From assembly GCA_016215455.1 (NCBI GenBank), contig JACRJP010000002.1, positions 151,622 through 215,621 of the forward strand: a stretch of DNA of 64,000 nt, given 5' to 3'. A model generated the notes under the pieces. That model was not told the DNA's origin, did no database searches, and was given only the letters and a program-made list of their open reading frames with translations. This DNA comes from Candidatus Tayloriibacteriota bacterium (GTDB lineage Bacteria; Patescibacteriota; Minisyncoccia; Phycocordibacterales; PALSA-1337). Below, piece after piece: positions 5,113-44,654 of the stretch (position 1 is its first letter; every line of letters starts with the position of its first letter). The translations under genes were made by a program, and so were the position numbers.

Positions 5113-5664
5113 ATGAAAATAGCATTTGTCGGACAACCTGCTGTTGGAAAAGATGCTGTTGCTGAGTATATTGCTCGACATTATAAACTTACACATATTT
5201 CTAGTGGAGATTTGATACGAGCGTACGTTACGGAAAATAATCTTGGAGGCCTCGATCGTACAAATTTACAGGTTGTGGGGAATAAGCTCCGTGCTCAGTA
5301 CGGGGGAGACTATCTTGTTGTGTTAGCTCTAAGAAAAACCCCTGACAATCTTATTCTCACAGGTCTACGAACAATAGATGAGGTAGAGACATTCAAAAAA
5401 ACAGGAGGTACTGTCATTGCTATCACAGCTCCGATAGAATTTCGTTATCAACTCGCTAAGAAGCGTGGGCGTATTGGAGAAAACATTTCTTTCGAAGAAT
5501 TTAAAAATATTGAAGAACAAGAAGCTCAGAACCCTGATCGAAATTCACAGAATGTTAATCAAGTTATTGGAATGGCAACTATTGAAGTTGTAAATGAAGG
5601 AACTCTCGAAGAACTTTTTGAAAAGGTGAAAAGGGTAGTTGATGGTATGAGGGTGTCTCAGTAG
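5113..5664 (+). CDS. P-loop nucleotide kinase (dephospho-CoA kinase/UPF0200-like)
   Basis: GQPAVGKD Walker A, SSGDLIR, GLRTIDE, RGR lid, NEGTLEEL. Confidence 0.8.
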   Translation: MKIAFVGQPAVGKDAVAEYIARHYKLTHISSGDLIRAYVTENNLGGLDRTNLQVVGNKLRAQYGGDYLVVLALRKTPDNLILTGLRTIDEVETFKKTGGTVIAITAPIEFRYQLAKKRGRIGENISFEEFKNIEEQEAQNPDRNSQNVNQVIGMATIEVVNEGTLEELFEKVKRVVDGMRVSQ

Positions 5665-36453: not shown

Positions 36454-37317
36454 ATGTCTAGTATTCTCGATTGCCGTCCTCTACGGAAGAAAATTGAAGC
36501 AGAACTTATAGCGACAATTAGTCGTATTACTCACGAGTATAAAGAAAATCTTACAACTGTGATTATTCAAGTAGGGAATCGAGCTGATTCAACTGCTTTT
36601 ATTATCGCCAAGAAAAAATTAGCAGAAAAGCTTGGGGTTGCTATACGACATATTAAGTTTCCTGAGGTTGTGTCTGAAAAAGAACTTTTGGAAGCGGTTC
36701 AGGCTGTTGCGGCTGACTCTCACGTGCACGGTATTATTGTTCAGTTACCGCTCCCGTCTCATATTGATAAAGATCGTATTATTAATGCTATTCCTGCCCA
36801 TAAAGATATTGATGGCCTGACAGCAATTAATATTCAACGTACATGGGAGGCTCGTACCTCAGCTATCGTACCTGCTACAACTCGAGGTATTTTGACCTTA
36901 TGTCGAGAGTTCGGTATTGTTCTCGAGGGTAAGCATGTTGTTATTCTCGGCCGATCAACTCTTGTTGGGAAACCTACAGCTGTTATGTGTACTACTCAAA
37001 ATGCAACGGTTACCGTTTGTCATAGTAAAACTCCTAATCTTTCTGATATTACAAAAACAGCTGATGTTCTTATCGTGGCAATCGGTAAGCCACACTTTAT
37101 TACCAAAGATTATATTCGTGCAGGTCAAACTATAATTGATGTCGGTATTACATTTGTCGATGGTGTTATGAAAGGGGATGTTCATCCTGAGGTAATTGAT
37201 CATCTTGGTAACAATGGAAGTGTTACTCCGGTTCCATTCGGTGTAGGGCAAATGACAGTAGCCTCTCTTTTTCAAAATCTTGTCCAAGGTTTCTTACAAT
37301 CGAAAAATTTGCTATAG
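36454..37317 (+). CDS. folD: Methylene-THF dehydrogenase/cyclohydrolase
   Basis: HGIIVQLPLP, KDIDG, GRSTLVGKP, IDVGI, TPVPFGVG. Confidence 0.95.
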   Translation: MSSILDCRPLRKKIEAELIATISRITHEYKENLTTVIIQVGNRADSTAFIIAKKKLAEKLGVAIRHIKFPEVVSEKELLEAVQAVAADSHVHGIIVQLPLPSHIDKDRIINAIPAHKDIDGLTAINIQRTWEARTSAIVPATTRGILTLCREFGIVLEGKHVVILGRSTLVGKPTAVMCTTQNATVTVCHSKTPNLSDITKTADVLIVAIGKPHFITKDYIRAGQTIIDVGITFVDGVMKGDVHPEVIDHLGNNGSVTPVPFGVGQMTVASLFQNLVQGFLQSKNLL

Positions 37318-39582: not shown

Positions 39583-40107
39583 TTAAGGAAGATGCTTTAC
39601 TTCAGGTGCTCCTGTATAGCGCACATTATACTCCAACAAAAGTGTACCTGTCGGAGTGGTCTCTGATGATTTTAGTTCAAGGTGAATATTACATGCTTCG
39701 TTAAAGAGTGAAATTCCTTTTCCAAACAAAAGAGGTTCGATCGTGAGATATATTTTCTGTACCACTTGTGCCTTTAGAAACATTGAGTAGATTTGTGAAC
39801 CGCCACAAATAGCTGCTTCAGTCGCCCCTTGTGCTTCAAGTTTTGCAAGAAGGGTATGAGGATCGTCTTGTGTGACAAGGGCACCTTCTAGTGTTTGATG
39901 GGTTCGAGAGTAGACAATATTGGTTCGTTCTTTGAGTGCGCGGGGTAGTGTTTTGTATGTTTGAGAGCCCATAATAACAATACCGGCCTGTCGGGTGAGC
40001 TCAACAAAGCGCTTTTTATCCTCTTTACTTGTCCAGAAAGCTGGGTGATTGCTGTCTTTTGCAATAAAGCCGTCTGCACTTACAGCTGCGATGATAAAAG
40101 TTTTCAT
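39583..40107 (-). CDS. Dihydrofolate reductase family protein
   Basis: SADGFIA, WTSKED..F, IMGSQTY, CGGSQIY; next to thyA operon. Confidence 0.85.
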   Translation of the reverse strand: MKTFIIAAVSADGFIAKDSNHPAFWTSKEDKKRFVELTRQAGIVIMGSQTYKTLPRALKERTNIVYSRTHQTLEGALVTQDDPHTLLAKLEAQGATEAAICGGSQIYSMFLKAQVVQKIYLTIEPLLFGKGISLFNEACNIHLELKSSETTPTGTLLLEYNVRYTGAPEVKHLP

Positions 40108-40191
40108 AGTAAAGTATAAAATTTTATAGTTGTCATCTATGACGACCCCTTTATGAGGAGTATACTTCATATTGAACATTAAAGAAAACCC

Positions 40192-40872
40192 ATGTCACGT
40201 ACCTATGAAGTAGAAATCAAAAGTTTGTTGGGCTCGAAGGAAAATGCTGATTCTCTTAAAAAAGGATTCATGAAAATGTATCCTACCGCAAAATTGGTAG
40301 GAGAGGAAAAGCAACTCAATCATTATTTCAATGCTCCAAGTGAATTTGCCACACTCAAAACAAATCTTCTTAAAGTCCTCCCTGAGGATAAAAAAGAATC
40401 TCTTGAGTATATTCTTACACAAGGCAAAAAGCTTTCAATTCGAACTCGTGATGCGAATGGAAAAGTACTCGTAGTTATCAAAGCGTCAGTAGGTGATGAT
40501 AGTAGTTCAAATGGTGTGAAGAGAATTGAATTTGAAGCAGTAGTGACAATGACTCTCGGTGAGCTTGATGATCTACTATTGGCTTCAGGATGTTCATACC
40601 AGGCAAAGTGGTCTCGAGAACGAGAAGAATATGAAGCAGGGGATATGCATATGTGCCTTGATAAAAATGCAGGATATGGCTATCTTGCTGAGTTTGAGAA
40701 GGTAACAAATGATGAAGCATCCCTTGATCGAGTCCGAGATGAGTTACTTGCTGTTATGAAGAGTCTGGATGTTGTAGAATTAGCACAGGATAGACTCGAG
40801 CGAATGTTTGCTCACTATAATGCACATTGGGCGGAGTATTACGGAACAGATAAGACATTTAATATAGAATAA
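40192..40872 (+). CDS. CYTH (triphosphate tunnel metalloenzyme) domain protein
   Basis: YEVEIK (ExExK), QLNHYF, SIRTR, RIEFE, KWSRERE, GYLAEFE. Confidence 0.85.
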   Translation: MSRTYEVEIKSLLGSKENADSLKKGFMKMYPTAKLVGEEKQLNHYFNAPSEFATLKTNLLKVLPEDKKESLEYILTQGKKLSIRTRDANGKVLVVIKASVGDDSSSNGVKRIEFEAVVTMTLGELDDLLLASGCSYQAKWSREREEYEAGDMHMCLDKNAGYGYLAEFEKVTNDEASLDRVRDELLAVMKSLDVVELAQDRLERMFAHYNAHWAEYYGTDKTFNIE

Positions 40873-40883
40873 TTTCCCACGAC

Positions 40884-41474
40884 ATGTATCTCTCAGATAG
40901 TGATATTAAGAAGGCAGTAAAAAATGGTGATATAGTACTCAGTAATTTTGATGAGACTCGATTGCAACCTGCGAGTTATGACATTATTCTCGGTAATAAG
41001 TTTATTGTTTGGAATACCGAAAAGTCGACAGCGATTGATCCTGTAAATAAGATATTTCCTGAGACAAAGGAACTTATTATCCCTGATGATGGTTTTTTTG
41101 TACTCCATCCAGGTATCAGTATCCTTGGTACATCAGTAGATCATTTCGGTTCTGATAAGTATTTGATCCAATTGTCAGGAAAGAGTAGTCTCGCTCGAAT
41201 TGGTCTCATTGTTCACAATACTGCCGGACTTATCAATCCAGGACATTTCCTTAATATTACATTTGAGCTCTGTAACCTTAACCATATCCCTATCATCCTT
41301 CGCCCTAATATGCGAATTGGACAGATTACCTTCTCACAGCTCACCAATCCTCCAGTAAAGGATTACAAAACAACAGGGAGGTATCATGGGCGAGATTGGC
41401 AACACTTCGTTGACCCTAAGGAGGATGAAAAGAAGAAGGGTAAGAAAGTGATAGCAAAATCAAAGAAGAAATAA
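40884..41474 (+). CDS. dcd: dCTP deaminase
   Basis: [37 protein letters not shown]. Confidence 0.92.
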
Positions 41475-41488
41475 TTTACTCAACTACC

Positions 41489-42535
41489 ATGCCAAAAAAG
41501 ATCCAAAAGAAGGTACAGAAGAAGGTGATAAAAAAGGTACGATCAAAAAGTACAGGACGGCATCCTGAAGAACAATACCTTGATCTTCTAAAGGATATTT
41601 TGAAAAATGGTTTTGAGAAAAAAGAATTTAATACAGGTATAGCAATTAAGAGTGTCTTTGGTCGAATGATGCGATTCGATCTCTCAAAAGGTTTTCCTCT
41701 CCTTACGACAAAAAAGGTATTCATGAAAGGAATTATTCACGAACTCGTATGGTTTCTTCGAGGGGATACTAATATAAAATATCTTGTCGACAACGATGTT
41801 CATATTTGGGATGAATGGCCATATAAGGAATATAAGAAACTCATGGAAGCCGGTACGGTACCAGCTATGACTCAGCAGGAGTTCATCGCAAAGATAAAGG
41901 CGGATGAAAGTTTCTCAAAGAAATATGGTGAACTCGGTCCAGTGTATGGCCGACAGTGGAGACGATGGCCGGCATCTGATGGTCGAGAGATTGATCAGTT
42001 GGCATGGGCGATTGAAAAATCAAAGAAATATCCAGATCGTAAACATGTGGTGATTTCTGCATGGAATCCAGAATATGTATATGAAATGGCAAAACCAGGA
42101 ACATCAATGGCTATTCCTCCATGTCATACAATGTTTAATATCAACGTGACAAATGGAAAACTTTCTCTTTCTTTGTATCAAAGAAGTGCGGATACATTTT
42201 TGGGAGTGCCTTTCAATATCGCTTCATACTCATTGTTGGCGATGGTATTGGCACAGGTATGTGGATACAAAGTGGGGGATTTTGTACACATGTTGGGAGA
42301 CACACATCTTTACGGAAATCATTATGAACAAGCTAAAGAACAGTCAAAGCGAAAGCCACGACCATTTCCTACAGTAAAAATTAATCCAAATCTCAAGAAT
42401 ATTGATGATATTAAGTTCGAAGACTTCGAACTCGTAGGATACGACCCACATCCTCCGATTAAAGGTGAAATTACAGTTGTCGGTGGATTCAATGCGAAGG
42501 ATACAAAGAACTTTACATTTAAAGGTAAAAAATGA
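41489..42535 (+). CDS. thyA: Thymidylate synthase
   Basis: [41 protein letters not shown]. Confidence 0.97.
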
Positions 42536-42999
42536 GACATACCACCCTTGTTTTCTTGCTGCGCGATAAAGAAATTCTTCTAGCGATGAAGAAACAAGGT
42601 TTTGGTATGGGAAAGATGAATGGAGTAGGGGGTAAGGTAGAACCTGGGGAAGATATTGTTGTAGGCGCTGCACGTGAAGCACAAGAAGAAATAGGTGTAA
42701 CGATTGATGTGTATGATTTGGAAAGAGTTGCTGTTAATACATTTGAATTCCAAGAAAAACCTGAATGGAATCAAGAGTGTCATATTTTCTTTGCTCGAAA
42801 ATGGAAAGGGGAACCAGTTGAATCTGATGAGATGAAACCAGAGTGGATTTCACTTGCTGCTATACCATATGAACATATGTGGGCAGATGATAAGTTCTGG
42901 TTACCGCGAGCTCTTGCGGGTGAGAAATTAAAGGCACACTTTCTCTTTACAAAAGACGGAGTAATGACAGACACATATTCAGTAGAGACTCTCAAGTAA
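42532..42999 (+). CDS. Nudix hydrolase, MTH1/8-oxo-dGTPase-like
   Basis: [40 protein letters not shown]; overlaps thyA stop. Confidence 0.9.
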
Positions 43000-43059
43000 T
43001 TTTTATTACTGTACTTGGTGAGTATAATCTCTTGACGAAAAATGAGTTGGTGGTAGCAT

Positions 43060-43426
43060 TCTACAGTGCAGGCAAAGTTTGACCACACACCTGCGCTCCT
43101 CCCCGTTCCTCCGCGGGAAGACGAGGATGGCTCTTCATAAAGAAAAGACGGACGTCACGACACATGGGTTTCAAGTTGGTGTGATCGTGATTAATCACAT
43201 ATTCGAGGATACCTCGAGCGTGCCCTAGTATGTCATGGATCTATCATAGGGGTTATTTGGGCCTTGTTCGACGAGAACCCCGGACCATCTAGGTGTGATT
43301 GTAGTACGGCGTTACCTGGGCTAATCGTGCTTCATCTTCCGTGCTAGTTTTCTTTTACCACCTCGTCATTGAGGCATGGCACCGCTGTAGAGCTCCGTCT
43401 CTCTGCACCGGTGCCTGTTTTTATTT
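43060..43426 (+). ncRNA. Candidate structured non-coding RNA of unknown family
   Basis: TTGACG-16-TAGCAT promoter, several hairpins, one long-range helix, terminal hairpin plus T tract, no independent ORF above 60 aa. Confidence 0.4.
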
Positions 43427-43472
43427 ATCCCACATGTTTTCCCTCAAAGAGCCAATATGTTACACTACCGAC

Positions 43473-44654
43473 ATGAAAGACACCCAGATCAAAAAACTGA
43501 TTGATACTGAAAAAAAGCGTCAAAAGAGCGTTATTAACCTCATTGCTTCAGAAAATTATGTATCTCAAGATGTACTTGATGCTTTGGGTTCGGAATTGAC
43601 GAATAAGTATGCTGAAGGGTATTCAGGGGCTCGTTACTATGGAGGAAATGAAATAATCGATAAGGTTGAGGATCTCTGCTGTGAGCGAGCACTCAAGCTT
43701 TTTGATCTTAATGAGAATGAATGGCATATCAATACTCAACCCCTCTCAGGTTCTCCTGCGAATCTTGCGGTATACGTTGGTCTTGTTCCTCAGGGTGCAA
43801 AGATTATGGGAATGTCACTCGATCACGGAGGACATCTTACACACGGTTTTAAGGTTTCTGCTACTGGAAAATTTTGGACACAAGTTCCATATGGAGTACA
43901 AAAAGAAACTGAACTTCTTGATTATGAAGCCCTCAAAAATCTCGCAATAGCAGAAAAGCCTGCCATTATTGTCGCAGGATATACTGCGTATCCTCGAAAG
44001 GTTGATTGGAAAAAGTTTAGAGAAATTGCAGATGCAAGTGGCGCACTCCTCATGGTCGACATGTCGCACCTTGGGGGACTTGTTGCGGGTAAGGTATATC
44101 CATCACCATTTCCATATGCTGATATTGTGACTACAACAACGCATAAGACACTCCGAGGTCCAAGAGGTGCACTTATATTTGTTCGTAAGGATGAACGAGG
44201 TCTTGATAAGAAAATAGATAAAGCTGTTTTTCCAGGTCTTCAGGGTGGTCCACACATGAACCAAACAGCAGCAATTGCTGTAGCTCTTAAGGAAGCTTCA
44301 ACCCCAGCTTTCAAAAAGTATGCCGGTCAAATTTTAAAAAATGCTACTGCGTTAGCAGCTGAACTTTCGAAGCGTGGTTGGAGAATTGTTTCTGGTGGTA
44401 CGGATTCTCATTTGATCCTCGTTGATACATGGATGAATGGCGCGGGTATTTCTGGAAAAGAAGCGAGTGATCGTCTTGAAGCTGCTGGAATTATTGTGAA
44501 CAAAAATACTATCCCATTTGATTCTCGATCACCAGTGGATCCTTCAGGAATTCGCCTTGGAACTGCCGCAGAAACTACTCGCGGAAAGAAAGAAAAAGAT
44601 TTTAAGAAAATTGCAGAAAAGATTGATCAAGTTTTGAATGCTAAGAAGAAGTAA
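43473..44654 (+). CDS. glyA: Serine hydroxymethyltransferase
   Basis: LIASEN, NKYAEGY, GGHLTHG, TTTHKTLRGPRG; start moved to ATG 43473. Confidence 0.97.
   Translation: MKDTQIKKLIDTEKKRQKSVINLIASENYVSQDVLDALGSELTNKYAEGYSGARYYGGNEIIDKVEDLCCERALKLFDLNENEWHINTQPLSGSPANLAVYVGLVPQGAKIMGMSLDHGGHLTHGFKVSATGKFWTQVPYGVQKETELLDYEALKNLAIAEKPAIIVAGYTAYPRKVDWKKFREIADASGALLMVDMSHLGGLVAGKVYPSPFPYADIVTTTTHKTLRGPRGALIFVRKDERGLDKKIDKAVFPGLQGGPHMNQTAAIAVALKEASTPAFKKYAGQILKNATALAAELSKRGWRIVSGGTDSHLILVDTWMNGAGISGKEASDRLEAAGIIVNKNTIPFDSRSPVDPSGIRLGTAAETTRGKKEKDFKKIAEKIDQVLNAKKK

Follow-up and report, generated by a model that had tools for sequence, protein, structure and literature searches.

A CYTH-family protein as a candidate stand-in for dUTPase in a conserved thymidylate cassette of Patescibacteria

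Which enzyme supplies thymidylate synthase (ThyA) with its nucleotide in a bacterium that encodes this enzyme beside dCTP deaminase (Dcd) and in which no dUTPase (Dut) can be found? dUTPase keeps uracil out of DNA and supplies dUMP, and it is treated as near-universal; the survey "Life without dUTPase" nevertheless describes many prokaryotes without a known dUTPase and asks what unknown enzymes substitute for it (PMC5122711). The question is raised here by a stretch of 64,000 nucleotides (the window; positions 151,622 to 215,621 of contig JACRJP010000002.1) from a Candidatus Tayloriibacteriota bacterium. On the plus strand of the window, the gene of a CYTH-family triphosphate-tunnel metalloenzyme (TTM) of 226 amino acids (40192-40872) is followed after 11 bp by dcd (40884-41474) and after a further 14 bp by thyA (41489-42535). 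The Dcd is of an unusual type with Asn at position 118, and the ThyA is a variant that we designate ThyA*. We propose, with moderate confidence, that the CYTH protein takes the place of Dut by hydrolysing the dUTP that this Dcd would release, with dUMP as the most probable product.

The association of the three genes is conserved. There are 4202 CYTH homologs at E <= 0.001, the best 120 of which are 61-100% identical and about 226 amino acids long; the source names are those of Patescibacteria/Paceibacterota. Synteny was assessed in 57 loci, fetched independently, that came from a scan of species-representative genomes for CYTH. thyA lies beside the CYTH gene in 53 of them, across many groups of Patescibacteria, and the four loci that lack it are two at contig edges and two in bins labelled Anaerolineae. 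The order is CYTH-DCD-THYA in 46 loci and DCD-CYTH-THYA in three, and single loci show CYTH-THYA-DCD with DCD on the opposite strand, CYTH-THYA (L060), THYA-CYTH with TGA possibly recoded (L058), a divergent ThyA-like gene on the opposite strand (L030) and a contig that ends within dcd (L041). CYTH stands alone in three loci, one at a contig edge (L062) and two in the Anaerolineae-labelled bins (L059 and L067). DHFR (dihydrofolate reductase) is upstream of CYTH and glyA is downstream of thyA in most of the loci; folD is upstream in 20. Within the source family, all seven CYTH-bearing genomes have CYTH-dcd-thyA in that order, and linkage to the cassette persists at CYTH identities from 76% to 46%. 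We conclude that the CYTH-DCD-THYA arrangement is far beyond chance. The original prediction, which saw in CYTH a non-orthologous dUTPase, looked to such synteny across Patescibacteria, and a conserved cassette is what was found. The literature covered, which did not extend to subscription journals, yielded no account of a dUTPase from the CYTH family or of a CYTH-dcd-thyA operon.

Some homologs stand apart from this pattern. The two loci in the Anaerolineae-labelled bins (3.6-4.7 Mb) encode CYTH orthologs of 46-50% identity outside Patescibacteria, with thyA not nearby. The CYTH and ThyA frames of L058 (labelled Absconditabacterales) and L060 (labelled Peribacteria) are broken by in-frame stops; several of these coincide with a Gly in the window protein, which would fit TGA read as Gly. 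Viral homologs sit on phage-like contigs (L141:663-5677 and L142:4947-6576), where one adjoins genes for an AAA protein, Fic, a T4-type RNA ligase and PNKP, and the other a primase-helicase and DUF5131.

Is dUTPase encoded elsewhere in these genomes? The source genome (G000) comprises 664 kb in 4 contigs and is 95.8% complete. Its sole match to the trimeric dUTPase profile PF00692 is Dcd itself (E 5e-4), and profile searches found neither MazG nor dCMP deaminase there; the controls for these profiles and for thymidylate kinase (Tmk) were positive in 11 to 14 of 14 reference genomes. The dimeric dUTPase was not found either, with a profile whose control reached the cut-off in 0 of 14 reference genomes, and the best match to thymidine kinase (Tdk), at E 0.006, fell short of the cut-off. 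Thus no canonical dut came to light elsewhere in the genome in which the prediction had been made, and the CYTH-thyA linkage is conserved. The six CYTH-bearing relatives gave the same picture, with PF00692 finding Dcd only and no canonical dUTPase, as did 50 further CYTH-bearing genomes, none of which has a canonical dut by this profile (this count leaves out seven short loci, and some of its genomes are the same as family members). G104, noted together with the Anaerolineae-labelled bins, has no PF00692 match whatsoever.

Genomes without CYTH differ. The source family was sampled by 37 genomes, seven with CYTH (G000, G002, G012, G014, G022, G027 and G029) and 30 without it. dUTPase was found in 0 of the 7, whereas 16 of the 30 have a canonical dut and seven more have only a Dcd-fold dUTPase (23 of 30 in total). 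Neither type was found in the remaining seven CYTH-less genomes, of which three (G004, G021 and G024) have another, Asp-type Dcd, three (G001, G006 and G035) have thyA only and one (G011) has no thyA match. Genus g103, from another family, shows the same alternation, as dut lies near Dcd(Asp)-ThyA in 5/5 CYTH-less genomes and in 0/2 genomes with CYTH. The anti-correlation of CYTH and dut expected by the original prediction was thus seen both in the family and in the further CYTH genomes. Most of the genomes are metagenome bins, so that "not found" is not to be equated with "absent". We infer a dUTPase role for CYTH (as a dUTPase of any fold) from gene context and from this phyletic complementarity with dut.

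The Dcd-fold dUTPases had at first the appearance of a second type of Dcd ("type b"), and their occurrence in relatives was considered as evidence that Dcd alone suffices. This argument was rejected because the proteins have the motif GIVDSGYEGQ and lack the deaminase Glu, which makes them Dcd-fold dUTPases. In ten genomes (G007, G008, G013, G015-G017, G019, G031, G033 and G034; loci L068-L077) such a protein, about 210 amino acids long and with Pro at the position of the deaminase Glu, has as its partner a divergent member of the ThyA family, with P-CPYTF and NIVRSND in place of PPCH..F and LYQRS.D. These may constitute a different pyrimidine-modifying pair.

Could the Dcd of the window itself make dUMP? 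Family calls on the open reading frames were made by Pfam and NCBIfam profile matches against curated cut-offs, and the protein is a dCTP deaminase by TIGR02274 (135.5 bits; cut-off 92.8) with the catalytic Glu128 of the deaminase kept. A bifunctional enzyme that takes dCTP to dUMP, like the DCD-DUT of Mycobacterium tuberculosis or Methanocaldococcus jannaschii, would leave CYTH with an auxiliary or unrelated task, such as hydrolysis of tripolyphosphate (PPPi) or pyrophosphate (PPi). The best match of the window Dcd in the PDB is indeed the M. tuberculosis Dcd:dut (4.5e-33, compared with 4.5e-18 for E. coli Dcd), and three of the CYTH-less genomes mentioned above (G004, G021 and G024) have a Dcd with both Asp and Glu beside thyA and neither dut nor CYTH. 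The alignment to the M. tuberculosis enzyme, however, reads IDPG there and INPG in the window. An alignment of the dUTPase superfamily (110 proteins from the fetched loci, 106 of them distinct) matches Asn118 to the motif-3 Asp found both in canonical Dut (GVIDSGYRGE) and in the Dcd-fold dUTPases (GIVDSGYEGQ), so the Asp that marks a bifunctional DCD-DUT is missing. According to the available part of PMC5519681, this Asp holds the catalytic water of Dut, and M. tuberculosis Dut with the change D83N binds as before but retains 0.0002 of its efficiency. By homology, the motif-3 Asp would also be needed for the dUTPase half-reaction of a bifunctional Dcd. As Asn118 occupies the position of the catalytic Asp, we regard a bifunctional Dcd as distinctly unlikely, and we predict that Dcd(N118) is monofunctional and ends at dUTP.

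The distribution of this residue follows that of CYTH. The genome loci contain 54 distinct Asn-type Dcd proteins, and CYTH is present in the locus of 53 of them. The single exception, in a genome that is 100% complete (G010), lies in the order NusG-L11-DHFR-Dcd(Asn)-dut-ThyA-Tmk, where dcd shares 4 bp with dut. A scan of metagenomes with Dcd gave 80 loci, all 80 with Asn; 75 of them have CYTH, three are cut by a contig edge directly upstream of dcd, and the other two (L166 and L167, mutually identical) have the layout of G010, with dut in the place of CYTH. Where CYTH is missing, then, the Asn-type Dcd is paired with a canonical dut, which speaks against a bifunctional enzyme, and an unrelated role for CYTH leaves the linkage across its range of identities unexplained.

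Other Dcd proteins in these loci deserve mention. The affinity of the Asp-type Dcd in the DCD-CYTH-THYA locus L054 to PDB entries was considered as evidence and found uninformative, because this protein is equally close to the M. tuberculosis (5.5e-39) and the E. coli (1e-38) enzymes. Six genomes (G045, G046, G052, G053, G055 and G057) have single frames of 366-402 amino acids with two tandem DCD domains, a fused double Dcd.

What kind of enzyme is the CYTH protein? It matches PF01928 with 45.3 bits (1.1e-11; cut-off 23.2) and carries the EXEXK motif as well as the charged tunnel residues, both basic and acidic, of the family. Across 41 homologs, 50 columns are invariant, among them the EXEXK motif (E6, E8 and K10), N43-H44-Y45 and the tunnel residues R84, R86, K97, R111, E113, K139, R142, R144, E167 and E169; a C-terminal helix (residues 196-223) is invariant and specific to this family. 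The catalytic set of TTM enzymes is, on these alignments, intact. The predicted AF2 model (pLDDT 91, pTM 0.82) has the eight-stranded tunnel fold, with Foldseek matches to SaTTM, CyaB, PH1819 and ThTPase at E 1e-12 to 1e-8 and with SaTTM (7nsf, E 1e-12), CyaB (2fjt), 2aca and PH1819 among the best. CYTH is predicted to be a phosphohydrolase of dUTP (or of pyrimidine dNTPs).

The fold leaves the position of the cut undecided, since of two relatives described in the available part of PMC8233210, SaTTM, an NTPase/PPPase, converts ATP to ADP by cleaving the terminal phosphate and has a preference for PPPi, whereas CyaB cleaves the alpha-beta bond. The D-x-Y water-binding motif common to both, according to the same part of that source, aligns with N43-x-Y45 of CYTH (HMMER alignment). 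Kinship with CyaB also suggests that CYTH might regulate the operon as a class IV-like nucleotidyl cyclase or some other signalling enzyme: the best fold matches include CyaB structures, and homologs are named "adenylate cyclase class IV" in their sources. We consider this very improbable. The score against the cyaB model TIGR00318 is 30.1 bits (cut-off 57.95), SaTTM-like archaeal proteins with the same label proved to be non-cyclases (PMC8233210, in the part available), and a regulator would leave the complementarity with dut unexplained.

The original prediction also allowed the Nudix hydrolase encoded behind thyA (42532-42999, plus strand; PF00293 55.8 bits, 6.2e-15) as the dUTPase. That the Nudix protein is the dUTP pyrophosphatase has some appeal, as the gene overlaps the thyA stop by 4 bp, its product is weakly similar to MutT and to the pyrimidine dNTP diphosphatase NudG, and its orthologs often lie within thymidylate clusters (directly beside dut, tmk or thyA in G032, G036 and G052, with G029 listed likewise). 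This did not hold up, and we now consider it the most improbable of the readings discussed here. Orthologs (41-55% identity) were found in 18 of 60 relatives searched, and in ten of these (G005, G008, G018, G020, G028, G032, G036, G042, G052 and G055) they co-occur with a canonical dut; they were not found in four of the seven CYTH genomes (G012, G014, G022 and G027), and tblastn gave no match in the other 56 CYTH loci. The Nudix gene is therefore an accessory gene outside the conserved cassette, a frequent companion of thymidylate (or folate) clusters and not a stand-in for dUTPase.

The third gene of the cassette is also unusual. ThyA* is a member of its family by TIGR03284 (400.6 bits; cut-off 108) and keeps Cys212, Arg232 and Ser233, the latter two corresponding to E. 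coli Arg166-Ser167. The available part of PMC6005164 names R21, R126', R127' and R166 as the arginines of E. coli ThyA that bind the phosphate of dUMP. Of these four, ThyA* keeps the R166 equivalent alone, with Phe47/Asn48 and no Arg at the R21 position and Lys185/His186 at R126'/R127'. Aligned with PDB sequences, the canonical D-RTGTGT reads EFNTGIA and PDSRR reads PDRKH, while LYQRS and the catalytic Cys are unchanged; the protein is also extended at its C-terminus and has an N-terminal tail rich in Lys. The same loss runs through the CYTH-linked proteins. All 59 in the genome loci are without Arg at the R21, R126' and R127' positions, in four sequence classes (RKH; AHN/CHN; RKS with an insertion; and L030). 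ThyA of L058 and L060 likewise has no Arg at these three positions, nor do the 76 metagenomic ThyA proteins beside CYTH or Asn-Dcd. Conversely, DRTGTG and the RR pair are kept in 10/10 complete canonical ThyA proteins without CYTH, including that of G010 and those of L166 and L167, which bear dut in a G010-like layout.

A further gap concerns the kinase that would follow ThyA. The original prediction held that dUTP to dUMP is the one step missing at this locus. dUTPase was indeed not found, but it is not the sole gap, because the source genome, which encodes ThyA, has no match to the thymidylate kinase profile PF02223 at E <= 0.01 either; the pathway of that prediction was incomplete in another respect as well, in that its ThyA is a variant with three of the four phosphate-binding arginines replaced. 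Six of the seven CYTH genomes of the family have no PF02223 match, the seventh (G002) has one of 54 bits, and none of the seven reaches E <= 1e-18, a level that 20 of the 30 CYTH-less family genomes attain. Among the 50 further CYTH genomes, the match is absent in 31, weak in 8 and strong in 11. Genus g103 has an operon-linked Tmk beside dut in 3/3 CYTH-less genomes and in 0/2 with CYTH, and a weak Tmk paralog in genomes of both kinds.

These two features would fit a different product for CYTH. If it removed the gamma-phosphate (dUTP to dUDP and Pi) and ThyA* methylated dUDP to dTDP, dUMP and dTMP would be bypassed, and CYTH and ThyA* together would replace Dut, ThyA and Tmk, so that Dut and thymidylate kinase would both be dispensable. 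Such a diphosphate route would accord with SaTTM, the nearest fold, which hydrolyses ATP to ADP at the terminal phosphate; with the loss, in all CYTH-linked ThyA proteins, of three of the four arginines that clamp a monophosphate; with the missing Tmk matches just described; and with the exchange, in two families, of {CYTH, ThyA*} for {dut, canonical ThyA, Tmk} (G010/L078 and L166/L167 in one, genus g103 in the other). We know of no thymidylate synthase, however, that accepts a diphosphate. ThyA* is immediately followed by Tmk in L032, L052 and L057, 5 metagenomic loci have Tmk close to ThyA*, and CYTH of L030 is accompanied by dCMP deaminase, a monophosphate enzyme. The position of Tmk directly after ThyA* and that of dCMP deaminase after CYTH are signs of a monophosphate product. 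A P-loop kinase family that is frequent near thyA could, moreover, be an unrecognized dTMP kinase, and the pocket may be a trait of the ThyA* lineage, which forms one clade. On balance, we regard the diphosphate route as rather unlikely.

The P-loop kinase of the window (5122-5655, plus strand, 178 amino acids; AAA_17, with an ADK-like N-terminus) is homologous (E 1.5e-8) to the kinase L046:7801-8361, which lies inside a CYTH-dcd-thyA-DHFR operon, and its relatives adjoin thyA in G009 and G043. It is a candidate for a non-orthologous dNMP/dTMP kinase. As a clean replacement of Tmk it was rejected, since its phyletic pattern complements that of Tmk only partly. DNMK (PF21448) was not found in the source genome. 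Locus L030 (1413-5020) has a setting of its own, with CYTH followed by a cytidylyltransferase-like gene and a gene for a 275-amino-acid protein with a dCMP deaminase domain. The opposite strand of L030 carries a very divergent ThyA-like gene, and the genome (G077) has no dcd, dut or tmk match.

We thus return to hydrolysis of dUTP by CYTH, most probably to dUMP. Dcd(N118) would release dUTP from dCTP, and CYTH would act on dUTP and perhaps also on dCTP. Its product, most probably dUMP, would be the nucleotide used by ThyA*, which would methylate it with methylene-tetrahydrofolate (methylene-THF), and GlyA, DHFR and FolD would recycle folate for this reaction. Several observations weigh against this proposal. 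The rebuilt phosphate pocket of ThyA* and the usual lack of a Tmk match are not explained by a plain dUTPase role. The nearest characterized CYTH relative, SaTTM, removes the terminal phosphate only and prefers PPPi, a preference that would also suit an auxiliary CYTH beside a bifunctional Dcd, and the closest solved relative of the window Dcd is bifunctional. CYTH also accompanies Dcd proteins that keep both Asp and Glu, in 3 of 34 cases (L054, L055 and L061), and one metagenomic operon (L150:577-4556) has CYTH and a canonical dut together, as DHFR-CYTH-Dcd(Asn)-ThyA*-dut-GlyA. Viral contigs gave only 2 distant CYTH homologs (33-37% identity), neither beside thyA. Finally, 56 CYTH-linked ThyA proteins form one clade in a FastTree phylogeny (SH-like support 100), and the association of CYTH, ThyA* and Asn-Dcd may therefore have a single origin, which would make its kin not independent. 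Both cassette types nonetheless occur within at least four genera (g2, g3, g10 and g103), and whole cassettes have therefore been exchanged repeatedly. Taken together, the idea of a non-orthologous dUTPase stands in part: the linkage and the complementarity with dut were found, and the function itself is a prediction.

The remaining genes of the locus agree with what had been described from the letters alone. The open reading frames and their Pfam and NCBIfam matches bear out a DHFR gene (39583-40179, minus strand; PF00186 (DHFR_1) 7e-18, PF01872 1.4e-17) divergent from a tightly spaced CYTH-dcd-thyA-Nudix run. Its true start is likely Met25 (about 40107), which gives a divergent spacer of about 84 bp between DHFR and CYTH; promoter-like hexamers occur in this spacer, with a scan signal no better than that of shuffles. 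No terminator-like site was found on the plus strand from CYTH through Nudix, in a scan that overall was not above shuffles. Downstream, as had been noted, lies glyA (serine hydroxymethyltransferase; 43341-44654, plus strand; PF00464 1.9e-160), whose start is likely about 43470 because the domain begins only at residue 45. Upstream is folD (methylene-THF dehydrogenase/cyclohydrolase; 36454-37317, plus strand; PF02882 and PF00763), put at about 2 kb in the original prediction and found at 2.3 kb.

The cassette is a concrete and widespread candidate for a gap-filling enzyme in prokaryotes that lack dUTPase. If the proposal is right, the CYTH/TTM superfamily would gain a new job and metabolic reconstructions of Patescibacteria would change, since the failure to find dut and tmk could otherwise lead to these organisms being judged incapable of making dTTP. 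The cassette also brings two natural variants that would seem impossible, a Dcd without the motif-3 Asp and a ThyA with one of the four phosphate-binding arginines. If the diphosphate route were true, it would be a new thymidylate pathway.

The components resemble known enzymes to different degrees. The window CYTH resembles SaTTM (Saci_0718, PDB 7ns8-7nsf) and CyaB (2fjt, 3n0z) in its TTM fold (Foldseek E 1e-12 to 1e-10), in the presence of EXEXK and in the charged residues, acidic as well as basic, of the tunnel; it differs in being only 16-20% identical to them, in its invariant C-terminal helix, in its place in a thymidylate operon and in a score under the cut-off of the cyaB model. The M. 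tuberculosis Dcd:dut (2qxx, 2qlp) is the closest solved relative of the window Dcd, and the Ser, Arg and Glu of the deaminase align; unlike that enzyme, the window protein has replaced the Asp of the catalytic water by Asn118. For ThyA*, the nearest parallel is the enzyme of Vibrio parahaemolyticus, in which a phosphate-binding Arg is naturally substituted (R127' to Gly) and the Km for dUMP is raised; the available part of PMC6005164 calls this single loss the first natural case, whereas here R21, R126' and R127' are all non-Arg in 59/59 proteins.

As a whole, the cassette follows the pathway logic of the E. coli-type Dcd-Dut-ThyA-FolA-Tmk route with its trimeric dUTPase (PF00692), and it has the same neighbors in dcd, thyA, DHFR, glyA and folD; in relatives, dut occupies the corresponding locus (G010/L078, L166 and genus g103). 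It differs from that route in that dut and tmk were not found in the source genome, in that the slot is held by a CYTH beta-barrel with a fold unrelated to that of Dut, and in the altered phosphate and water sites of its ThyA and Dcd. A functional analogy is provided by phage T4, whose gp56, a dCTPase/dUTPase of the MazG type, feeds dCMP and dUMP to deaminase and synthase. There, too, a non-Dut enzyme lowers pyrimidine dNTPs to the monophosphate for the synthase, and the setting of L030, with CYTH beside dCMP deaminase, is similar; gp56 belongs to the MazG type and not to CYTH, and we claim no homology between the two.

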